From contig CAZIDK010000001.1 in the NCBI GenBank assembly GCA_964537895.1, positions 233,338 through 289,593 on the forward strand: a stretch of DNA of 56,256 bases, written 5' to 3'. This DNA is from an uncultured Gammaproteobacteria bacterium. GTDB taxonomy: Bacteria; Patescibacteriota; Microgenomatia; Levybacterales; UBA12049. Numbering within the stretch: the stretch's first letter is position 1; every line of letters begins with the position of its first letter. The notes beneath the pieces are model-generated. The model saw nothing but the letters and a program-made list of their open reading frames with translations, did not search any database and was not told where the DNA came from. The position numbers and the translations under genes are program-made. Of the stretch, positions 7,726 through 44,683 are shown piece after piece.

Positions 7726-8592
7726 TTACAGTTCGGAAAGCGCGGCGCCTTCTTTGCTTTTCCCAACTTCTCCAACGTATTGAAGATATCTTTCGGTTGT
7801 TGAAAGTCTTTTGTGTCCCAAAACTTTAGACAAAACAATCAGCGAAACACCGTGTTTTAAGTGGTGGGCAACAAAAGTGTGTCTCAAATCGTTAACCTTT
7901 GCCCCTTTTATTTCTGCTAAGCGGAAATATCTTTCAACAGCCGTTCTAATATTTCTTATCAAAAACGGCTTGCCGGATTTTGTTATGAATAAATGATCTT
8001 CTTTAACGCTTGGCCTAATGTTCATGTATCTGCTCAAAGCTTCCCGGGCGCTTTTGTTAAGGGGAACAATTCTGTCTTCGTGTTTTTCAAAAGGAGCAAT
8101 GTGCAAGCTGTCTTTTGTAATGTCCGAAAGCCTTAAGTTGGAAAGCTCGCCGATTCTAATGCCTGTTTGTAAAAGCAGTTCTATAATCGCAAACATTCTC
8201 GGGTCGTTTTTTGCGGCGTCTCTTAATGCCCTATATTCTGTTGGAGTTAAGATTCGCGGGGGTGCCAGCTGATATTTAGGATGGGATACCAAGAGGGAGG
8301 GGTCGTCCGTAACGTATTCGTTTACTTTTAAAAATCGGTAAAAGGTTCTGGTTGAATTTATTTTTCTGGAAATTGATTTAGGCGTATAGTTATCCTTGCT
8401 CATTTTGGCAAGAAAAGCTTCGATGTCTTCTTTAGACACCTCGTGAACCTGGTTTCTCTGCAGTTCTTCCAAGAACGAAAGAAGCTGATCAACGTCTTTT
8501 CCGTACGCAATTACAGTAGAGTTTGATCTATTATTTTCTTTTAAGTATTTTTTAAATTCTTCGTGGGCATCGCGAAGCTTAATTGGCTTCAT
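7726..8592 (-). CDS. XerC/XerD-like tyrosine recombinase
   Basis: SAM-like N-domain; LLQTGIRIGEL, NDLRHTF, LGH..LSTTERY. Confidence 0.88.
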   Translation of the reverse strand: MKPIKLRDAHEEFKKYLKENNRSNSTVIAYGKDVDQLLSFLEELQRNQVHEVSKEDIEAFLAKMSKDNYTPKSISRKINSTRTFYRFLKVNEYVTDDPSLLVSHPKYQLAPPRILTPTEYRALRDAAKNDPRMFAIIELLLQTGIRIGELSNLRLSDITKDSLHIAPFEKHEDRIVPLNKSAREALSRYMNIRPSVKEDHLFITKSGKPFLIRNIRTAVERYFRLAEIKGAKVNDLRHTFVAHHLKHGVSLIVLSKVLGHKRLSTTERYLQYVGEVGKSKEGAALSEL

Positions 8593-11181: not shown

Positions 11182-12885
11182 CACAGTCGGAATAGAAGCA
11201 TACTTTTCTTCAAATTGTGCCTTCATTGCAAGCTCTTTTTCAGGTGCGACCGCTTCTCCGATAATCGGTGCATCTTCTTTCATTTCTTTAAGGGTGAGAA
11301 TATACTTCGGGCTGTCAATATCTACTATTCTATCCTTCAATGTTAGGTGCGACCCTAAACCCATGAAAATATCCCGTTTTATTTTCAGGTCATCCGTTGC
11401 AAATCGCTCCTTTGCCCTTGCAGCAAATGTAAACGCTTTTACCGTATCCTCGTTTGCTTGTAACATGCGGTTATCAATAGTCCCAAGCTGTTTCTCTAAG
11501 CCTCTCAATTCTTGCTCAAGCGTATCTTTCTCTCGCTTATATTGCTCATCGCTTAGCAAACCCCCATCACTATTGGCTGGTGATATTTTAAGCTGCAAGA
11601 GATTGTCCAGCTTCTTCCTACACTGATCGTGAGCTCGCTTAATGCCATCTATGGCATCCTCTCGGAAGTTTCGCTCATTATCATTCGCCTTGTGAATCTG
11701 GCGTATTGCCCAATCCATGAAAAGGGGTGAAATCTCAACATGCGTGAGCTTCTCATCAATTTGCTCCTCAAGTCTGTCAATCCGTATCGCTCGCTCTCTA
11801 CAGGCGGAGTTCTTCTTACGACTGCATCTGTAGTAGGTATAGTGCAGAATTGTAGGCTTTACCATATCTTCTATACGAGTATTACATGCCGTACACTTTT
11901 CTTTGTTGATCTTCGTCAGCGAAAACTTGAGCTTACAGTTTGTGCAAATACACTGCAACTTTTGCTCGGCAACGATACTTGAACTGCAAGACCCACACCT
12001 CACGAGGCTACCTGTATAGGCATACTCATGGTGCTTCAGTCTATACTGACTTCTGCGACCAAGTTTCAGTTGAATCTCATTAAATATCTCCTCACTTATG
12101 GTTTTTTCATGCTGTCCTTCGTACCACTTGCCGCTTCCAATAGGATACTCATACTTCCCAATGTAAAAGGGGTTCGTAAGAATAGCATAAAACATGCTTA
12201 TTGAGAGCTGCTTACCTCCGCTTCGCTTCTTCTGTCTCGTTGCAAAATGCCATTCATCTTTTGCAATCCTATGAATTTCTATAACTGGTGTACCTGTATG
12301 GAATAGCTCAAATATCTTTTTAACGAATGGTAAGCGTTCTGAATCGGTAAGTATTTTTCTAAACCCGCTTTCTGTGGTCTTGTCATTGAGATAGCCAACT
12401 GGTGCAACGCCTGGCCGCCAACCATCACGTGCTTTCTTTCCTAACCCTCGTACGACAACAATACTTTTATCATCGCTATCTTTCTTTGAAATACCAAATT
12501 CAAGCGTGAGCATAAACTTATCTTCTGGCGTATTGTGATAGGTACGGGAGGGTGTACGAATTTCTATAAGCTTGCCTTCATCCATTAAGTAAAGAATTCT
12601 GCCTGAATCAAGGGGGTTACGACATAACCTATTGGGATGCCACGTTAGGATAGCATTTGCTTTACCTACCTCTACCTTTTCAAGCATGGCATTGAATAAT
12701 TCTCTGCCTGCTTTATGAGCAGATTTTGATTCTTGGAGAATTTCAATAATGGCAAGATTATGTCGTGCTTTAATTCCTTCAAGAACGTACAGTTGCTCAG
12801 GTAAAGATGCTGCTTGCCGCTCCTTGTTATCCTCCGAGGACTTGCGAGCATAGCCTATGTATCGTAGAGTAATTTCTTTATCCAT
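11170..12885 (-). CDS. Large serine recombinase (resolvase + recombinase + Zn-ribbon + coiled coil)
   Basis: YARKSSE catalytic Ser; ESKSA, NRLCRN, APVGY, ILTNPFYIG, GQHEKTIS, CGSC, YYRC. Confidence 0.93.
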   Translation of the reverse strand: MDKEITLRYIGYARKSSEDNKERQAASLPEQLYVLEGIKARHNLAIIEILQESKSAHKAGRELFNAMLEKVEVGKANAILTWHPNRLCRNPLDSGRILYLMDEGKLIEIRTPSRTYHNTPEDKFMLTLEFGISKKDSDDKSIVVVRGLGKKARDGWRPGVAPVGYLNDKTTESGFRKILTDSERLPFVKKIFELFHTGTPVIEIHRIAKDEWHFATRQKKRSGGKQLSISMFYAILTNPFYIGKYEYPIGSGKWYEGQHEKTISEEIFNEIQLKLGRRSQYRLKHHEYAYTGSLVRCGSCSSSIVAEQKLQCICTNCKLKFSLTKINKEKCTACNTRIEDMVKPTILHYTYYRCSRKKNSACRERAIRIDRLEEQIDEKLTHVEISPLFMDWAIRQIHKANDNERNFREDAIDGIKRAHDQCRKKLDNLLQLKISPANSDGGLLSDEQYKREKDTLEQELRGLEKQLGTIDNRMLQANEDTVKAFTFAARAKERFATDDLKIKRDIFMGLGSHLTLKDRIVDIDSPKYILTLKEMKEDAPIIGEAVAPEKELAMKAQFEEKYASIPTVLRG

Positions 12886-26422: not shown

Positions 26423-27106
26423 ATGGCAACAGTAAAAAAGAAAACCTCTGCAAAATCCGAAAAGAAAGTTTTAAAAACTACTAAACAGCATTTTTCCAAA
26501 AAAGAAGCAATAAACCTGGGATTTAAATTGGCAAAGAAAAATATTATATTTTTCATCGGGATTTTCGTTATAGTCGTTGTTATTTCCTCTATATCGTCAG
26601 CAATTCAAATAGGCGTAGCTTTAGAGAAACAGTCAATGTTGTATATTTTATTGAATATCTTAACATTTATTGTTAACGCAATTATTGGCATGGGACTTAT
26701 TAAAATATCTTTGGCGTTTATCGATAATAAAAAACCCAAATTCTCAGATCTTTTTTATGTAAAACCGTTTGTTAATTTTATATTAGCCAGTTTAATAAGA
26801 GGCGTAATAACTTTTATTGGTTTTATTTTGCTTATTATTCCGGGAATTATTTTTTCTATAAGATTGCAATATGTTACATATTTAATTGTCGATAAAAATT
26901 TGCCTCCGGTTGAGGCTATTAAAAAAAGCTGGGAAATGACAAAGGGAAATACATGGAATCTTTTTTTCTTTGGTATTTTGCTTTTCTTAGTTAATGTATT
27001 GGGCGCAATTATTCTTTTAGTAGGTCTTTTTGTAACAGTGCCCTTAACAATGCTTGCCATAACCTTTGTTTATCGTAAGCTCCTCTTACATTCAAAAGCT
27101 GCCTAG
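26423..27106 (+). CDS. Integral membrane protein (DUF975/glycerophosphodiesterase membrane-domain-like)
   Basis: LLIIPGII, AIKKSWEMTKG, multiple TMs. Confidence 0.75.
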   Translation: MATVKKKTSAKSEKKVLKTTKQHFSKKEAINLGFKLAKKNIIFFIGIFVIVVVISSISSAIQIGVALEKQSMLYILLNILTFIVNAIIGMGLIKISLAFIDNKKPKFSDLFYVKPFVNFILASLIRGVITFIGFILLIIPGIIFSIRLQYVTYLIVDKNLPPVEAIKKSWEMTKGNTWNLFFFGILLFLVNVLGAIILLVGLFVTVPLTMLAITFVYRKLLLHSKAA

Positions 27107-27125
27107 GTTATAATCATTTTATGGA

Positions 27126-27189
27126 CCCCGCATATTCTTACTTTCTCGCGAGGCTTACATCCTCGCCTCGAAAGAGCGAATATACGGGG
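27126..27189. mobile_element. ~65-bp hairpin element, copy A (CCCC..CTTA..RGCG..GGGG family)
   Basis: Homologous to 28176-28240 and 29822-29886; lies between ATGGAC (27121) and ATGGAT (27208). Confidence 0.8.
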
Positions 27190-27207
27190 CAAGAAAATTA
27201 ATAATTT

Positions 27208-28137
27208 ATGGATAAATTAGTAATAATAGACGGTAACGCGATTGTGCATCGCGCATTCCACGCCCTACCTCCGATGAATACTCAAGACGGCCAGTTAACA
27301 AACGCAGTTTATGGTTTTTTTGCCATGCTTTTAAAGCTTTTAAACGACTTAAAACCGGAATATTTAATAGTTTGCTTTGACAGGCCTAAGCCAACTTTTA
27401 GAAAGCAAATGTATGTAGGTTATCAGGCAAAAAGACCGAAAATGTCAGACGATTTAGCTCCGCAAATAGATCTTTTGCACAAAGTATTAGAAAAAGCCAA
27501 AATAGAACATTTTGAAATAGACGGATATGAGGCAGATGACATTATCGGAACAATTGCGACTCAATCCGCCGCAAAAAATCTCCAGGCAATTATCGTCTCC
27601 GGAGACAGGGACATGCTTCAGCTTGTAAATCATAAAGTTCTTGTTTTGGCCCCAATCTCGGGTATTACAAAAATGATGCTTTTCAATGAGGAGAAAGTAA
27701 AAGAAAAATATGGTTTAAAACCATCGCAATTTATAGATTACAAAGCTTTGGTAGGTGACTCTTCGGACAATTACCCGGGAGTTACGGGAATTGGACCAAA
27801 AACAGCCAGTAATCTTCTTAATAAATATAATACTTTTGAAAACCTTTATGAGCATATCTCCGAACTTCCGGAAAATATCGGTTCAAAACTTGCGACGGAT
27901 GCGGAACAAGCTGCTCTTGCCAAAAAACTGGCAACAATCGTTACGGATGCACCTGTAAAAATGGATTTGGAAAAAGCAAAAATAGGAAAGATTGATAAAA
28001 TAGGACTTCTTGAGGCTTTTAAAGAGCTTGGTTTTAAAACTTTAATGGGAAGAGTTCTTGTGCAGGAAGTTCCGGTTAAAAAACTAAACAAGAAAGAGAA
28101 TAAAAAAGAAATTAGAGATCAACTGAATTTATTATGA
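27208..28137 (+). CDS. Stand-alone 5'-3' exonuclease/flap endonuclease (PolA N-terminal domain only)
   Basis: IDGN..HRAFHA, YEADD, SGDRD, LVGDSSDNYPGV.GIGPKTA; stops after 309 aa. Confidence 0.92.
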   Translation: MDKLVIIDGNAIVHRAFHALPPMNTQDGQLTNAVYGFFAMLLKLLNDLKPEYLIVCFDRPKPTFRKQMYVGYQAKRPKMSDDLAPQIDLLHKVLEKAKIEHFEIDGYEADDIIGTIATQSAAKNLQAIIVSGDRDMLQLVNHKVLVLAPISGITKMMLFNEEKVKEKYGLKPSQFIDYKALVGDSSDNYPGVTGIGPKTASNLLNKYNTFENLYEHISELPENIGSKLATDAEQAALAKKLATIVTDAPVKMDLEKAKIGKIDKIGLLEAFKELGFKTLMGRVLVQEVPVKKLNKKENKKEIRDQLNLL

Positions 28138-28175
28138 AAGTCGCAATTGTTCACGATTATATAAAAGAATACGGC

Positions 28176-28240
28176 CCCCGCACAGAACTTACCTTCTTCC
28201 GAGGCCTACGTCCTCGCGGCGAAGGGGCGTTTATGCGGGG
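28176..28240. mobile_element. ~65-bp hairpin element, copy B, between duplicated glycosyltransferase starts
   Basis: ccccgcacagaa-ctta-ccttc..gaagg-ggcg-tttatgcgggg. Confidence 0.8.
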
Positions 28241-28255
28241 TAAAGGAGCAGGGAA

Positions 28256-29398
28256 ATGAGAGTGGCTATCGTTCATGACTACATCAAGGAATTTGGAGGT
28301 GCAGAGAGAGTGCTAGAAAAGCTTCATGAAGTTTTTCCCGATGCGCCTATCTATACAACTGTATATTTACCTTCATTTTTAGGGCCTCATAAAAAAAGAT
28401 TTGCGGGTATGAATATTAAAACTTCGTTTTTGCAGTTTTTTCCGTTTAAAGCAAAACTAATCAGTCCTTTTAGGCTTTTGGCCCCAACTGCATTCAGAAG
28501 CTTTGATTTTTCCGCATATGATGCAATAATTGTTTCCCAAACCGGTTCGTATTTCCCAAATGCGATTAAAAAAAGAGGAGCTAAGCTTATTTGCTATTGC
28601 CATACGCCGCCAAGGTATCTGTATGGGTTTGAAACGGCAAGGGATTGGAAGAAAAATAAGCTTTTTATGGTTTTGGGGATGATTTCGATTCACTTTTTAA
28701 GAATGACAGACTTTAAATCTTCGCAAAATGTAGATTATTTTATTGCAAACTCGGAAAATGTCAGGAAAAGAATACAAAAGTTTTATAGAAGAGATGCGAT
28801 TGTGATTTTTCCGCCTGTAAGTTCAGCAACTAGTAATCTAGCAACTAGCCATCAGTTACAGAACGACGAACTGAATGCTAACTCGCTAGTTGCTAGAGGC
28901 TATTATCTGGCTGGAGGAAGACTTGCAAGGCCAAAGCATATAGATTTAATAGTAGAAACATTTTCAAAACTAAATCTTCCCTTAAAAATATTCGGAAAAG
29001 CATTTGCCGGCTATGGGAAAGAACTTAAAGATAAAGCAAAAGAAAATGTTGAATTTTTAGGCGAAATTACAGATGAAGAAAAATATAAATTTATGAAAGG
29101 AGCAAAAGCATTTGTTTTTGCTTCGGAAGACGAAGATTTTGGCATAACTCCGGCAGAGGCAGAGGCCCTGGGGACGCCGGTTATAGCTTTTGCATCAGGA
29201 GGAACATTGGAAACAGTAGTTGATAATAAAACAGGAATATTTTTTAACGAATTAACAATTGAGTCACTTTCGGAAGCGATAGAAAAGCTTAATAAAACTA
29301 AATTTAAAACAGAAGACATTATTGCTCAAGGGAATAAATTTTCGGAAAGTATTTTTAAATCTAAAATAAATGAATTTGTAGATTCAAAAATAAAATGA
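28256..29398 (+). CDS. Glycosyltransferase family 4
   Basis: VAIVHDY..GGAERV, YCHTPPRY, EDFGITPAEA..GTPVIA. Confidence 0.92.
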   Translation: MRVAIVHDYIKEFGGAERVLEKLHEVFPDAPIYTTVYLPSFLGPHKKRFAGMNIKTSFLQFFPFKAKLISPFRLLAPTAFRSFDFSAYDAIIVSQTGSYFPNAIKKRGAKLICYCHTPPRYLYGFETARDWKKNKLFMVLGMISIHFLRMTDFKSSQNVDYFIANSENVRKRIQKFYRRDAIVIFPPVSSATSNLATSHQLQNDELNANSLVARGYYLAGGRLARPKHIDLIVETFSKLNLPLKIFGKAFAGYGKELKDKAKENVEFLGEITDEEKYKFMKGAKAFVFASEDEDFGITPAEAEALGTPVIAFASGGTLETVVDNKTGIFFNELTIESLSEAIEKLNKTKFKTEDIIAQGNKFSESIFKSKINEFVDSKIK

Positions 29399-29799
29399 AA
29401 TCAAGAATTTGTGTCTCAGCAGTTATAGAAAAAGACGGTAAGATTCTCTTGGGACAGAAGATAAAAGATTTAGGTCCATATCCGAATACGTGGCTTTTGC
29501 CAGGCGGAGGTGTTGAGCAAGGGGAATCTTTAGAAGAGGCAATTAGAAGAGAAATTAAAGAAGAGACCGGCTTAGAGGTGAATAATCTTGAAAAAATAGG
29601 CGTTGATGAAGATGATGAGCCTAATAAGTATGAAGAAATGACGCATTATATTTTTCATTCTTTCAAGGCAAATCCGATAGGGAAACACAAAGACACAGAA
29701 GAATTTCCCACGCTTGGGTGGTTTAAGATAGCTGAACTTAAAAATATCCTTCACGCAAGACCATCAATAAAACTTTTTAAGAAACTGGGGTATTTATAA
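29395..29799 (+). CDS. NUDIX hydrolase
   Basis: PGGGVEQGESLEEAIRREIKEETGL Nudix box. Confidence 0.92.
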   Translation: MKSRICVSAVIEKDGKILLGQKIKDLGPYPNTWLLPGGGVEQGESLEEAIRREIKEETGLEVNNLEKIGVDEDDEPNKYEEMTHYIFHSFKANPIGKHKDTEEFPTLGWFKIAELKNILHARPSIKLFKKLGYL

Positions 29800-29821
29800 T
29801 GCCGGAATTACCTGAAATAGA

Positions 29822-29886
29822 CCCCATACAAAACTTACTTTCTCCCGAGGTCTACGCCCTCGCGTCGAAGGGGCGTTTATACGGGG
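29822..29886. mobile_element. ~65-bp hairpin element, copy C, between duplicated mutM starts
   Basis: ccccatacaaaa-ctta-ctttc..gaagg-ggcg-tttatacgggg. Confidence 0.8.
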
Positions 29887-29917
29887 CAAGAACAATTAAT
29901 ACGAAAGGAGTAATGCT

Positions 29918-30865
29918 ATGCCCGAGCTACCTGAAGTAGAGACAATAAGGCTTGGTTTGCAAAAATATCTTGTCGGGCATAAGATTGAAAATATTGAGGT
30001 TAGAATTCCTAAAATGTTTGCCGGCAGAAAAGAAGATATTTTAGGAGTAAAAATTACTAATATCAAAAGAATAGGTAAAGGATTAATTATCGAATTTGAT
30101 AATGATTATCTTTTAGCAGTGCATTTTAAAATGACCGGCCAGTTGGTTTTTCGGGATAAAAATACTCAAAACCTGGTTCTTTCCAAAAAAGTTGGGGGCG
30201 ATGTCCTGCCAACAAAGTATTCCCATGTTATTTTCACCTTGGATAAAGGAGCTATGCTTTACTATAACGACCTGCGCCGCTTTGGCTGGGTAAAGATTTT
30301 GAAAAAAGATGAACTGATGAAAATGCCATTTTTTAGCGAAATGGGACCGGAACCCTTCGTCAGCAAAGCTTCCTCAGGGCAAGCCGTTTTAACTCTCGAT
30401 AAGTTTAAATCAATACTTTCAAACTCAAGCGTTGCTGTAAAGCCTCTGATAATGGATCAGAAGAGAATAGGAGGAATAGGTAATATCTACGCCAATGATG
30501 CCTTATTCAAAGCCGGAATTGATCCAAGAAGATCTGCAAAGCAGATTACAAAAGAAGAGGCTAAGAAACTGTACAAGGCAATATTTGATGTTTTAAAAAA
30601 AAGTTTGGAATACGGCGGATCATCGGATGAAAATTTTGTTAATGCGCTTGGACAAGAGGGGGCATATCAAAATCATACCTTAGTTTATGGGAAAAAAGGC
30701 CAAAAATGTCCAAAATGTCATTCGACTCTGAGGGACAAGCCCTCAGGCTCAGATCTTCGATTCCGAGATCACTCAGATTCGAGGAACTCGAAGAGCGGCT
30801 CAATAATTGAAAAGATCCAGCTTGGGGGCCGTGGAACCTTTTTTTGCGAGAAGTGTCAGGGGTAG
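29918..30865 (+). CDS. mutM: Formamidopyrimidine-DNA glycosylase
   Basis: MPELPEVET, HFKMTG, DLRRFG, GIGNIYA, Zn finger CPKC...GRGTFFCEKCQ. Confidence 0.96.
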   Translation: MPELPEVETIRLGLQKYLVGHKIENIEVRIPKMFAGRKEDILGVKITNIKRIGKGLIIEFDNDYLLAVHFKMTGQLVFRDKNTQNLVLSKKVGGDVLPTKYSHVIFTLDKGAMLYYNDLRRFGWVKILKKDELMKMPFFSEMGPEPFVSKASSGQAVLTLDKFKSILSNSSVAVKPLIMDQKRIGGIGNIYANDALFKAGIDPRRSAKQITKEEAKKLYKAIFDVLKKSLEYGGSSDENFVNALGQEGAYQNHTLVYGKKGQKCPKCHSTLRDKPSGSDLRFRDHSDSRNSKSGSIIEKIQLGGRGTFFCEKCQG

Positions 30866-43238: not shown

Positions 43239-43865
43239 ATGTTTGAAAACAGAGAAGAAGCGGCCTTAAAACTTTGTTTAAAACTTAAAAGCGCTGTTAA
43301 AGGTAAGGATATTGTTGTTATAGCCCTGGTAAGAGGCGGAGTAATTTTAGGTAAAATTATCGCAGACAATTTTAAAGCTCCCTTAGATATTATTGTTATT
43401 AAAAAAATAGGCGCGCCTGGGAATAATGAACTTGCAATTGGAGCAGTCGGTCCTAAAAACACAGCTTATTGGAACAATGATTTATGTAAAGTTTTGGGTT
43501 TATCTCAAAAAGAAAAATTAGAGTTAAAAAAAGAAAAAGAGAGACAAAGAAGAGAACAGGAAAAACTATTTAAAAGCCGCCATATTGACTTTAGAAAAAA
43601 ATCGGTTATCCTTGTTGATGACGGAATCGCAACGGGCGCAACCGCAATAGTTGCTGCCAAATTTCTTAAAAAGAGTAAAGGAAAAAAAGTAATTTTGGCA
43701 GTTCCGGTAATTTCAAAAGATACATTAATTAATATTAAAGAATATTTTGATATGGTGTTAAGTTTGAAAATTGTTAAAGATTTCTCTGCGGTTGGAGAGT
43801 TTTACAAAAGTTTTCCTCAAGTAGAAAATGAGCAAGTTATTAAAATTTTAGCAACTAGCCACTAG
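43239..43865 (+). CDS. Phosphoribosyltransferase-family protein
   Basis: MFENREEA, RGGV, KKIGAPGN.ELAIGA, VILVDDGIATGAT; ATG 7 nt after TGTATAAT. Confidence 0.88.
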   Translation: MFENREEAALKLCLKLKSAVKGKDIVVIALVRGGVILGKIIADNFKAPLDIIVIKKIGAPGNNELAIGAVGPKNTAYWNNDLCKVLGLSQKEKLELKKEKERQRREQEKLFKSRHIDFRKKSVILVDDGIATGATAIVAAKFLKKSKGKKVILAVPVISKDTLINIKEYFDMVLSLKIVKDFSAVGEFYKSFPQVENEQVIKILATSH

Positions 43866-44059
43866 CACTTAGCAATCAGTTATAATAAATTAACTAGTTG
43901 CTATTTGCTGAAGGCTAAATTTATGAAGCTTATTGTAGGACTGGTCCATCCTAATCTTTCCGTTCGATCGCGTTCGACGCGACTCACGGAGCCCCGCCTG
44001 CATTGCCTTTCGGCAAAAGCCGATGGCGGGCAGGGATTTAAGGAGGATCTCGCATCATT

Positions 44060-44683
44060 ATGAAGTTGATAGTTGGGCTCGGTAATCCGGGATTAAAATA
44101 CGAACGTACAAGACATAACCTGGGTTTTGTTGCTGTTGAACATTTTTTAAAAGACTTCGCGCCGGTAAAAGATGGAACTTGGGAAGATTCAAAAAAATTT
44201 AAAAGCGAGATTGCAGAAATTACTTGGCAGCCGAAAGCCTCGTTACCGCAAAAAGTAATTCTCTGTAAGCCCAAAACCTATATGAATAACTCCGGAATGG
44301 CTGTTAAAATAATTAAAGATTTTTATAAAATTCACCCATCGGATATTTGGATCATTCACGATGATGTTGATTTACCTTTAGGCAGCATGAAAATAAGACT
44401 TGGGGGAGCATCTGCGGGGCATAAGGGCGTTGATTCAATAATTAACACTCTTGGTACGGACAAGTTTTGGAGATTTAGATTAGGTATTGGAAAGCCGAAA
44501 CAAAATTTAAGTGAAAAGCACCAGAGCTTTGTTTTTAAAGGTGTTGATAACTATGTTTTGGGGGAATTAATGGGCGGAGATTGGAGCAGGGCAAAAACTC
44601 TTATTAAAAAATCGGTAAAAGCAATTGAAACAGCGCTTGAAAAGGATCTTACAGTTGCCATGAACAGGTTTAATACAAAATAA
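44060..44683 (+). CDS. pth: Peptidyl-tRNA hydrolase
   Basis: MKLIVGLGNPG, TRHNLGF, KPKTYMN.SG, HDDVDL, GHKG, RLGIG. Confidence 0.96.
   Translation: MKLIVGLGNPGLKYERTRHNLGFVAVEHFLKDFAPVKDGTWEDSKKFKSEIAEITWQPKASLPQKVILCKPKTYMNNSGMAVKIIKDFYKIHPSDIWIIHDDVDLPLGSMKIRLGGASAGHKGVDSIINTLGTDKFWRFRLGIGKPKQNLSEKHQSFVFKGVDNYVLGELMGGDWSRAKTLIKKSVKAIETALEKDLTVAMNRFNTK

Follow-up and report, generated by a model that had tools for sequence, protein, structure and literature searches.

Candidate gene-end replacement cassettes: GC-rich hairpins between displaced and working gene starts in Microgenomates

We analysed a 56,256-nt stretch of DNA (hereafter the window; positions 233,338 to 289,593 of the forward strand of contig CAZIDK010000001.1, assembly GCA_964537895.1), which is deposited as an uncultured Gammaproteobacteria bacterium and placed by GTDB in Patescibacteriota (Microgenomatia, Levybacterales, UBA12049). 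In this window the 5' end of a glycosyltransferase (GT) gene occurs twice, and a 65-nt GC-rich hairpin separates the two copies. The hairpin belongs to a family of short palindromes, and about one third of the family's copies have a displaced gene-end remnant on one flank and a working replacement on the other. We consider it probable that the family represents a horizontally spreading gene-end replacement cassette, that is, a bacterial counterpart, lacking an open reading frame (ORF), of the mobile-ORF (mORF) gene-end replacement of mitochondria.

At the GT locus, the ORF of a 5'-3' exonuclease gene (exo; 27208..28137) ends in a TGA that is overlapped by ATG 28134, the abandoned GT start. The displaced start comprises 14 codons (28134..28175, plus strand) encoding MKVAIVHDYIKEYG. 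It is followed by the hairpin core at 28176..28240 (plus strand; 65% G+C compared with 37% for the window), which was matched by our covariance model at 28170-28242 with 96.1 bits and folds at -32.5 kcal/mol on the plus strand and -35.6 kcal/mol on the minus strand. A 15-nt spacer then carries the ribosome-binding site (RBS) AAAGGAG at 28242-28248 on the plus strand, 7 nt ahead of ATG 28256. The ORF opened by this second ATG (28256..29398, plus strand, 380 aa) begins with MRVAIVHDYIKEFG and encodes a complete GT4-type glycosyltransferase (Pfam Glycos_transf_1 and Glyco_transf_4). The abandoned frame runs across the element as a short, dead-end ORF of 41 aa (28134..28259), and its TGA overlaps ATG 28256. 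An earlier note on this DNA, made from the sequence alone, had described these coordinates, reading frames, TGA/ATG overlaps and AAAGGAG, all of which were reproduced from the sequence and the ORF list. The note had also proposed that the insert brings a replacement N-terminus and RBS. Because the Pfam domains of GT, and likewise the Fpg domain at a second locus described below, align from the second start, the downstream copies are the working starts; the second GT ATG with its RBS is thus the functional one. Our codon count agrees with the one reported before, namely 12 of 14 residues identical and 11 of 14 codons different, mostly at third positions: three codon pairs are identical, nine synonymous and two non-synonymous, and the nucleotide differences at the first, second and third codon positions number 0, 2 and 10 (10 of 12 at third positions).

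We compared each of the 3154 candidate ATG starts of the genome with its own 300 nt upstream (reverse scan). The GT pair had the top start-repeat score (67, against a 99.9th percentile of 42.9). The highest-scoring duplicated starts were those of GT, trxB and fpg, which carry this hairpin, and those of pth, glmS and one gene on contig C6, which carry other GC-rich hairpins. The earlier note had named a chimeric assembly of two strain alleles as a possible refutation. Logan contigs from two runs, X1 (15.9 kb, depth 52) and X3 (14.9 kb, depth 29), each cover the interval 27000-30100 in one piece, and within it they show 0 differences and no other way of joining; these are independent contigs, from runs that are possibly the source samples, and the evidence is at the level of contigs, not raw reads. 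As far as contigs can tell, the locus is no chimera; its architecture was found again in numerous other assemblies.

The divergence between the two copies was examined in 43 pairs of duplicated ends. Among their 515 codons, 171 were identical, 233 synonymous and 111 non-synonymous, and the differences at the three codon positions were 97/60/290; the pairs were detected by amino-acid similarity, which inflates the synonymous share. In 39 distinct pairs, 131 of the 344 codons for the same residue were identical, compared with 138.5 expected from independent draws from this genome's codon usage (z = -0.87). The copies are neither more nor less alike than unrelated alleles, which bears out the earlier statement that this is not a simple target-site duplication. 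An extra recoding, in the sense of avoidance of identical codons, was not supported in these 39 pairs, and foreign origin accounts for the recoding better than purposeful design does. Duplication of resident DNA followed by drift is ruled out because synonymous sites are saturated while both copies keep the protein sequence; a long target-site duplication with later drift was rejected on the same grounds. We also considered that the remnant might once have extended, in a form now decayed, through the spacer, which would place the hairpin within a longer remnant. The mean local score was 5.03 compared with 4.76, a non-significant difference (permutation p = 0.096, 38 pairs), and the match of 10 of 13 positions between the GT spacer and the remnant continuation may be due to chance. 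Adenine mutagenesis of the type caused by diversity-generating retroelements was likewise rejected, as the copy differences, judged by eye, involve all four bases.

Empty alleles with a single start, which the earlier note had suggested looking for, are present in related genomes and in other metagenomes. Single starts are seen at GT, fpg, exo and trxB in the congener G002 and at pth in G001. Contigs from unrelated groundwater metagenomes (runs X5 and X9) lack the exo copy, and those of run X5 pass from the upstream GT start straight into the GT gene. Compared with the G002 start, the GT remnant has 37 identical nucleotides out of 42 and the working copy has 31. Codons 1-23 of the working gene (28256-28324) form a patch hyper-diverged at synonymous sites: codons 2-23 differ from G002 at 17 of 22 positions, compared with 49 of 164 in the remainder (Fisher p = 2.6e-5), and show the highest divergence of all 22-codon windows in this comparison. 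The patch extends nine codons beyond the duplication. In fpg, the first 15 codons of the working gene are hyper-diverged from G002 (12 of 14 codons differ in codons 2-15, then 3 of 20), and codon 7 of the remnant, Ile, agrees with the G002 empty allele. The trxB remnant shares the short N-terminus of G002, and the exo remnant keeps native codons 2-4 in G001 and is eroded further in the present genome (G000). We regard pth as the youngest case because its gene body is ~97% identical to that of G001; there, codons 2-7 differ at 4 of 6 positions and the following sequence at about 8%.

To define the hairpin family, a covariance model was built from three copies and used on this genome and on 61 genomes of the order. 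It recovered 11 copies in the 0.79-Mb genome, of which BLAST alone found three; the remainder required the model. The element is 65-75 nt long, and its outer stem is a 7-bp terminal inverted repeat. Model matches occurred in 22 of the 61 genomes, the present one counted. A degenerate core pattern gave 101 matches in a collection of species-representative genomes, and every informatively named match was a metagenome-assembled genome of Microgenomates (Woese-, Curtiss-, Levy-, Gottesman-, Roizman- or Amesbacteria). Compensatory changes were found at all 22 stem pairs among 74 aligned copies; 91% of the cells in these pairs were paired, compared with 71.5% in column shuffles and 39-53% with slid partners, in an alignment that was fitted to the model and therefore somewhat favours the structure. 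Wobble pairs comprised 45 G.T on the sense strand and 66 A.C, so that the mRNA-sense strand is not favoured and the structural constraint may act on DNA or on either strand. Pairing of the remnant with the spacer or the new start was not robust (148-nt folds, z = -0.78 and +0.73), and the stem reaches into the flanks only in trxB. No Rfam 15 family, riboswitches, ribozymes and introns among them, matched the element in 27000-30100, even at E values up to 10. The nearest copy lay at the same target in other genomes in 34 of 61 cases and in the same genome in 5 of 61. Copies at the same locus are 86-99% identical across genera and can be 94-99% identical across families, while nearby synonymous sites are saturated.

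The association with duplicated ends was assessed by comparing the left and right flanks of each copy at the protein level and counting scores of at least 30. Duplicated ends were found at 26 of 73 copies in a first set, compared with 11 of 600 mismatched left/right controls, and at 26 of 81 copies in a second set from the genome collection, compared with 14 of 600 controls; one of the latter 26 is a locus-edge artefact. The enrichment at duplicated starts predicted in the earlier note was thus observed twice, in addition to the GC-rich hairpins at the top duplicated starts of this genome. The targets include fpg, ychF, trxB, uvrA, mreB, tsaD, lepA, radA, GT, tRNA 3' and 5' ends, and -35 boxes. 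The junction falls at the foot of the hairpin, mostly inside the most conserved motif near the gene end: in ychF it follows GLPNVG, in fpg it is identical in at least seven genomes, and trxB has been hit at two different 5' sites and at its 3' end.

Several of these targets show features of their own. At the trxB 3' ends (L091, L094, L095, L101; G037, G059, G001, G052), a variant hairpin stands right after the stop codon, and directly behind it the last ~20 codons recur in recoded form, a mirror image of the 5' layout; trxB of G001 has insertions at both ends. In G002 (L111, G002:C36, 1151-4892, minus strand), a 2.6-kb insertion without a hairpin lies after trxB. It encodes a radical-SAM/SPASM enzyme, an MA-type peptidase and a Pro/Gly-rich ORF of 79 aa, a cargo that looks like a peptide-maturation set, and behind it the last ~50 trxB codons occur a second time; the two copies agree in their first ~95 nt and differ in their tails. 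In zwf of G011 (L087, G011:C40, 301-370), the element lies inside the gene, and in-frame read-through adds 24 residues. A subfamily sits after the first bases of a -35 box (G000 C4:46795 and C3:89097; L021, L023, L026, L033, L040, L076) and is followed by a unique, perfect hairpin of 8-12 bp and then by a restored TTGACA promoter. A 24-nt remnant of a tRNA-Val 3' end with a hairpin is conserved in four genomes (G000:C2:155570-155760, L229; L080, L084, L106); the sequence to the right of this hairpin resembles the next part of the tRNA, and the adjacent intact tRNA differs in three of the genomes.

We suggest that these Microgenomates-wide, GC-rich palindromes of 65-75 nt may serve as gene-end replacement cassettes in the following manner. 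The inserted unit would consist of the hairpin, a short spacer with an RBS, and a copy of the target's first codons that stems from a distantly related allele. Its point of entry would be a few codons into the gene, in most cases in the N-terminal motif that is best conserved. The start of the resident gene, whose overlap with the upstream stop codon persists, would remain as a short dead-end ORF, and expression would proceed from the cassette start. Cassettes, or blocks including the remnant, may spread between lineages by DNA uptake and recombination, with the conserved codons on either side probably acting as homology. Since both flanks of a remnant-hairpin-start block are homologous to one conserved target, such a block could enter the empty allele of any lineage by ordinary recombination. 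Selection at the level of the element for arms matching conserved codons would explain why the remnants keep their amino-acid sequence. The first creation of a cassette may have involved one-sided homologous and illegitimate joining, or repair of a double-strand break. In an excerpt of one report, bacteria of the candidate phyla radiation (CPR) have been described as possessing competence and recombination genes (PMC12455944).

Besides the inflated synonymous share mentioned above, the following points weigh against the proposed cassettes. None of the pairs is a young, near-identical duplication of a protein start, so that the creation event is unobserved. The synonymous divergence of GT between G000 and G002 is uneven along the gene anyway. 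The trxB remnant and hairpin are almost identical in G000 and G001, though a third of the gene's codons differ; this near-identity could reflect function rather than recent transfer. In pth, each of the two copies shows differences from the G001 empty allele at 4 of 6 codons, and these are all synonymous. The pth intergenic region also differs from G001, and identity resumes right after the duplication, in the conserved GLGNPG codons. The whole pth block, remnant included, therefore appears to have been imported, which weakens the view that the remnant is native and the replacement foreign. With regard to enzymes, none tied to the GT-type hairpin was found. The genome has a single Y1_Tnp transposase gene; by hand tally, such genes occur in 13 of the 22 genomes that contain the element and in 19 of the 39 that lack it, with no clear co-occurrence. 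GT-type hairpins had 0 matches in the 92 kb within 1.5 kb of 30 loci of GIY-YIG nuclease genes, and no GIY-YIG gene lay between element and target in 142 loci (6 GIY-YIG ORFs in all, within 657 kb of element-bearing loci).

GIY-YIG genes were nevertheless abundant. Besides uvrC, this genome has 13 small ones (about 80-100 aa; contigs C1, C2, C3, C6 and C7, e.g. L226 408-790 and L227), and they were present in all 26 genomes searched; HNH and TnpB gave no match in this 97.6%-complete genome. Many GIY-YIG genes lie between co-oriented tRNA genes, and some are bounded by 13-bp inverted repeats. Among 21 ORF-tRNA pairs examined, five loci have an ORF stop that adjoins the 5' end of the following tRNA or overlaps it, and three of these five have an upstream copy of at least the first 16 nt of the tRNA, interrupted by a GC-rich hairpin. 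In some cases the last codons of the ORF re-create the 5' end of the next tRNA, and a remnant of that end is present upstream. The hairpins at these loci belong to families other than that of GT; one type is found as the insert at a duplicated protein start of the present genome, and another forms half of the pth insert. No duplicated protein-gene start was found in the flanks of 33 small GIY-YIG ORFs. The earlier expectation of full alleles with a nuclease ORF was thus borne out at tRNA genes with other hairpins, and no such ORF was seen between the two starts of a protein gene. Since the GT-type hairpin is absent from the 30 GIY-YIG loci and no GIY-YIG gene separates it from a target, nuclease-driven homing stays an unproven analogy, to which we give a rather low probability. 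It is possible, if doubtful, that a homing nuclease drives the process and that the hairpins, now ORF-less, derive from fuller elements comparable to the GIY-YIG genes that separate tRNA 5' remnants from restored tRNAs in these genomes. Equally tentative is the idea of miniature homing cassettes as a third route, beside introns and inteins, into the most conserved parts of essential genes: the remnant and replacement would act as two homology arms, and the difference between the copies would guard the filled allele from a trans-acting nuclease, perhaps a small GIY-YIG enzyme, and from loss by recombination between the repeats. In such homing the host gene would survive because the cassette brings its own RBS, start and first codons.

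Other explanations were weighed against gene-end replacement. The duplicated starts could be a passive by-product, with a host-useful or neutral element of the 5' leader resembling repetitive extragenic palindromic (REP) sequences or MITEs (miniature inverted-repeat transposable elements), for example an mRNA 5' stabiliser or a protein-binding palindrome, and with scars of homeologous or illegitimate recombination in a genome without intergenic room; neither drive nor a nuclease would be involved. Same-locus identity of the hairpin beside saturated synonymous sites suggests a constraint on the element itself, many copies have no remnant and occupy leaders or sites immediately upstream of -35 boxes, a promoter-like site places the exo copy at the transcript 5' end, the 2.6-kb insertion at the G002 trxB 3' end duplicates a gene end without any hairpin, and no linked enzyme was found. 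We nonetheless judge this explanation unlikely. The junction falls exactly at the hairpin foot in dozens of independent cases, repeatedly in the conserved motifs of the same genes, the six strongest duplicated starts of the genome all have a hairpin, and the wobble test (45 against 66) did not favour the mRNA sense. An ordinary transposition with a long, later diverged target-site duplication, or an assembly chimera of two strain alleles, has a next to negligible probability. The 7-bp terminal inverted repeat and the many copies would fit transposition, but the two copies of a gene end are as different as independent alleles, yet mainly at third positions, and the spacer is not copied from the sequence upstream of the old start; a chimera is contradicted by independent contigs that span the locus without alternative joints and by the recurrence of the pattern in many assemblies.

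The layout of remnant, element and replacement also resembles attL and attR, which would be expected if a small circle of hairpin, spacer and gene-end fragment had been integrated within the gene end by a tyrosine or serine recombinase, as in the attP x attB recombination of islands that rebuild the end of a tRNA or other gene. Positions in the tRNA T-loop and D-loop are used, and the genome encodes two tyrosine and three large serine recombinases. We consider such a mini integrative element very unlikely, as the copies share only scattered identities in place of an identical core, the many targets are unrelated in sequence, no recombinase gene adjoins the elements, and a duplex circle of ~130 bp would be physically improbable. 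A selected leader peptide or coupling device, with the duplication as an adaptation of translational control, is highly improbable. It is true that, in GT, fpg and trxB, the remnant ORF crosses the element and terminates at the new ATG or close to it and that remnants keep their amino-acid sequence. The read-through, however, comes free, since the GC-rich element is open in all three frames; remnants decay by deletion in exo and uvrA, and tRNA ends and -35 boxes, which involve no peptide, show this layout too.

The closest parallel to the gene-end replacement proposed here is found in fungal mitochondria. In an excerpt of PMC3630166, mORFs are described as replacing the 3' ends of atp6, atp9, cox2 and nad3 in Glomus, and of atp6 in Allomyces macrogynus (Paquin et al. 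1994, as cited there); the native copy resembles that of a close relative, and the inserted copy has 64-81% DNA identity with nearly the same protein. As far as that excerpt goes, the likeness comprises an insert that carries a foreign gene end, a native end left as a duplicate, and an inserted copy diverged in DNA with its protein conserved, whereas the mitochondrial inserts differ in having a LAGLIDADG or GIY-YIG endonuclease ORF, in affecting 3' ends, and in belonging to fungal mitochondria. The hairpin cassettes, in contrast, are 65 nt long, have no ORF in their spacers of 15-50 nt, occur mostly at 5' ends with their own RBS and start, affect at least 12 genes and reside in CPR bacteria. 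A native copy close to relatives was found here too, except in pth, where both copies differ from the empty allele.

Integration of SXT/R391 in the 5' end of prfC is described in an excerpt of PMC5812530. Such integrative elements, like islands in tRNA 3' ends, share with the hairpins an insertion in a gene end, with the displaced remnant and the restored gene on opposite sides of it. Reportedly, as Hochhut and Waldor are said to have found in 1999, SXT supplies prfC with a new 5' coding end and promoter. Integrative elements, however, are 10-100 kb long, encode an integrase and use one fixed attB with an identical core, whereas the hairpin has no integrase, no shared core and many targets. 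The free-standing endonucleases Seg and Mob of T-even phages cut the empty allele, flanking markers are co-converted, and the donor is immune owing to sequence differences. Unlike the present case, this intron-less homing is not known to involve a gene-end duplication or an ORF-less hairpin form.

MITE and REP palindromes, Rickettsia palindromic elements, mycobacterial interspersed repetitive units (MIRUs) and mitochondrial GC clusters are short, GC-rich, multicopy and non-autonomous, and are sometimes translated. The present hairpin is likewise short, GC-rich and multicopy, and is translated in frame in zwf of G011. We know of no such palindrome that carries a replacement gene start or leaves a displaced one. 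Like MITEs, the element is short, has no ORF, is multicopy and has terminal inverted repeats, but the flanking repeats range from 5 to ~60 nt rather than having a fixed length, the right repeat is set off by a unique spacer, and no longer element with the same ends was seen. Compared with the system of REP and REP-associated tyrosine transposases (RAYT), the hairpin is longer than the 20-40 nt of a REP and is not extragenic. In homology-facilitated illegitimate recombination in transformable bacteria, one homologous anchor and a microhomology join bring in foreign DNA. This process would give a foreign patch past the duplication, as in GT and fpg, but it has been described as insertion-deletion, not as a recurrent family joined at a hairpin foot. 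In the open-access full-text literature on CPR/Patescibacteria, we found nothing on duplicated gene starts flanking hairpins.

If the cassettes are real, the ultra-compact genomes of CPR bacteria accommodate mobile DNA, and exchange it, within conserved 5' ends of housekeeping genes such as fpg, trxB, ychF, uvrA, mreB, tsaD and pth, through gene-end swapping and not through splicing. Intron-less homing in bacteria would become directly testable with them, as would recombination across diverged lineages whose members cannot so far be cultivated on their own. The combination of hairpin, RBS and recoded first codons is the same trick as is used in genome engineering against re-cutting of edited alleles. 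For annotation, gene callers will choose wrong starts or spurious ORFs of 40 aa at cassette sites. With the foreign patches as markers, gene flow among Microgenomates can be followed at a fine scale.

The layout at GT repeats 1.6 kb further on, at fpg. A NUDIX gene (29395..29799, plus strand; ORF list, Pfam) ends in a TAA that overlaps the abandoned fpg ATG 29799. The displaced start MPELPEI (29799..29821, plus strand; ORF list) opens a dead-end ORF to 29939 and is followed by a second hairpin copy of 65 nt (29822..29886, plus strand; model match 29816-29888, 92 bits), which is 85% identical to the GT hairpin. The working fpg gene (29918..30865, plus strand) has an RBS at 29904-29910 and starts with MPELPEVE at ATG 29918, with Pfam Fapy_DNA_glyco aligned from residue 1. 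A further displaced start, that of pth (MKLIVGL, 43923-43944), forms with a composite GC-rich hairpin insert and an RBS the segment 43923..44059 (plus strand; reverse scan and sequence), ahead of the working peptidyl-tRNA hydrolase gene pth (44060..44683, plus strand; Pfam Pept_tRNA_hydro). This insert consists of a variant of the hairpin and a second hairpin, which is also nested in the uvrA copy and found beside a GIY-YIG gene. The duplicated start of trxB, with the GT-type hairpin, lies just outside the window.

Upstream of the exonuclease gene (plus strand; ORF list, Pfam 5_3_exonuc_N and 5_3_exonuc), another hairpin copy is located at 27120..27191 (plus strand; covariance model R1, 81.8 bits), and the old start on its left is reduced to a few bases. 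A promoter-like site at 27085-27114 ends just ahead of this hairpin; scans for promoters and terminators gave counts no higher than in shuffles. In the G002 empty allele (L044 440-480, compared with 27085-27210 of the window), the exonuclease ATG lies 6 nt 3' of a TATAAT box, which suggests that the mRNA is leaderless there; in G000 and G001, the exonuclease transcript would begin with the hairpin.

On the minus strand of the window, a tyrosine recombinase domain and a large serine recombinase domain (573-aa ORF) were found at 7780-8253 and 12421-12858. Short intergenic repeats rich in TAG/CTAG occur at L044 1340-1500, at ~43860-43920 of the window and at L226 330-400. Each of their frames is rich in stop codons; between congeners these regions diverge quickly, and assembly gaps (N runs) fall at the same places.

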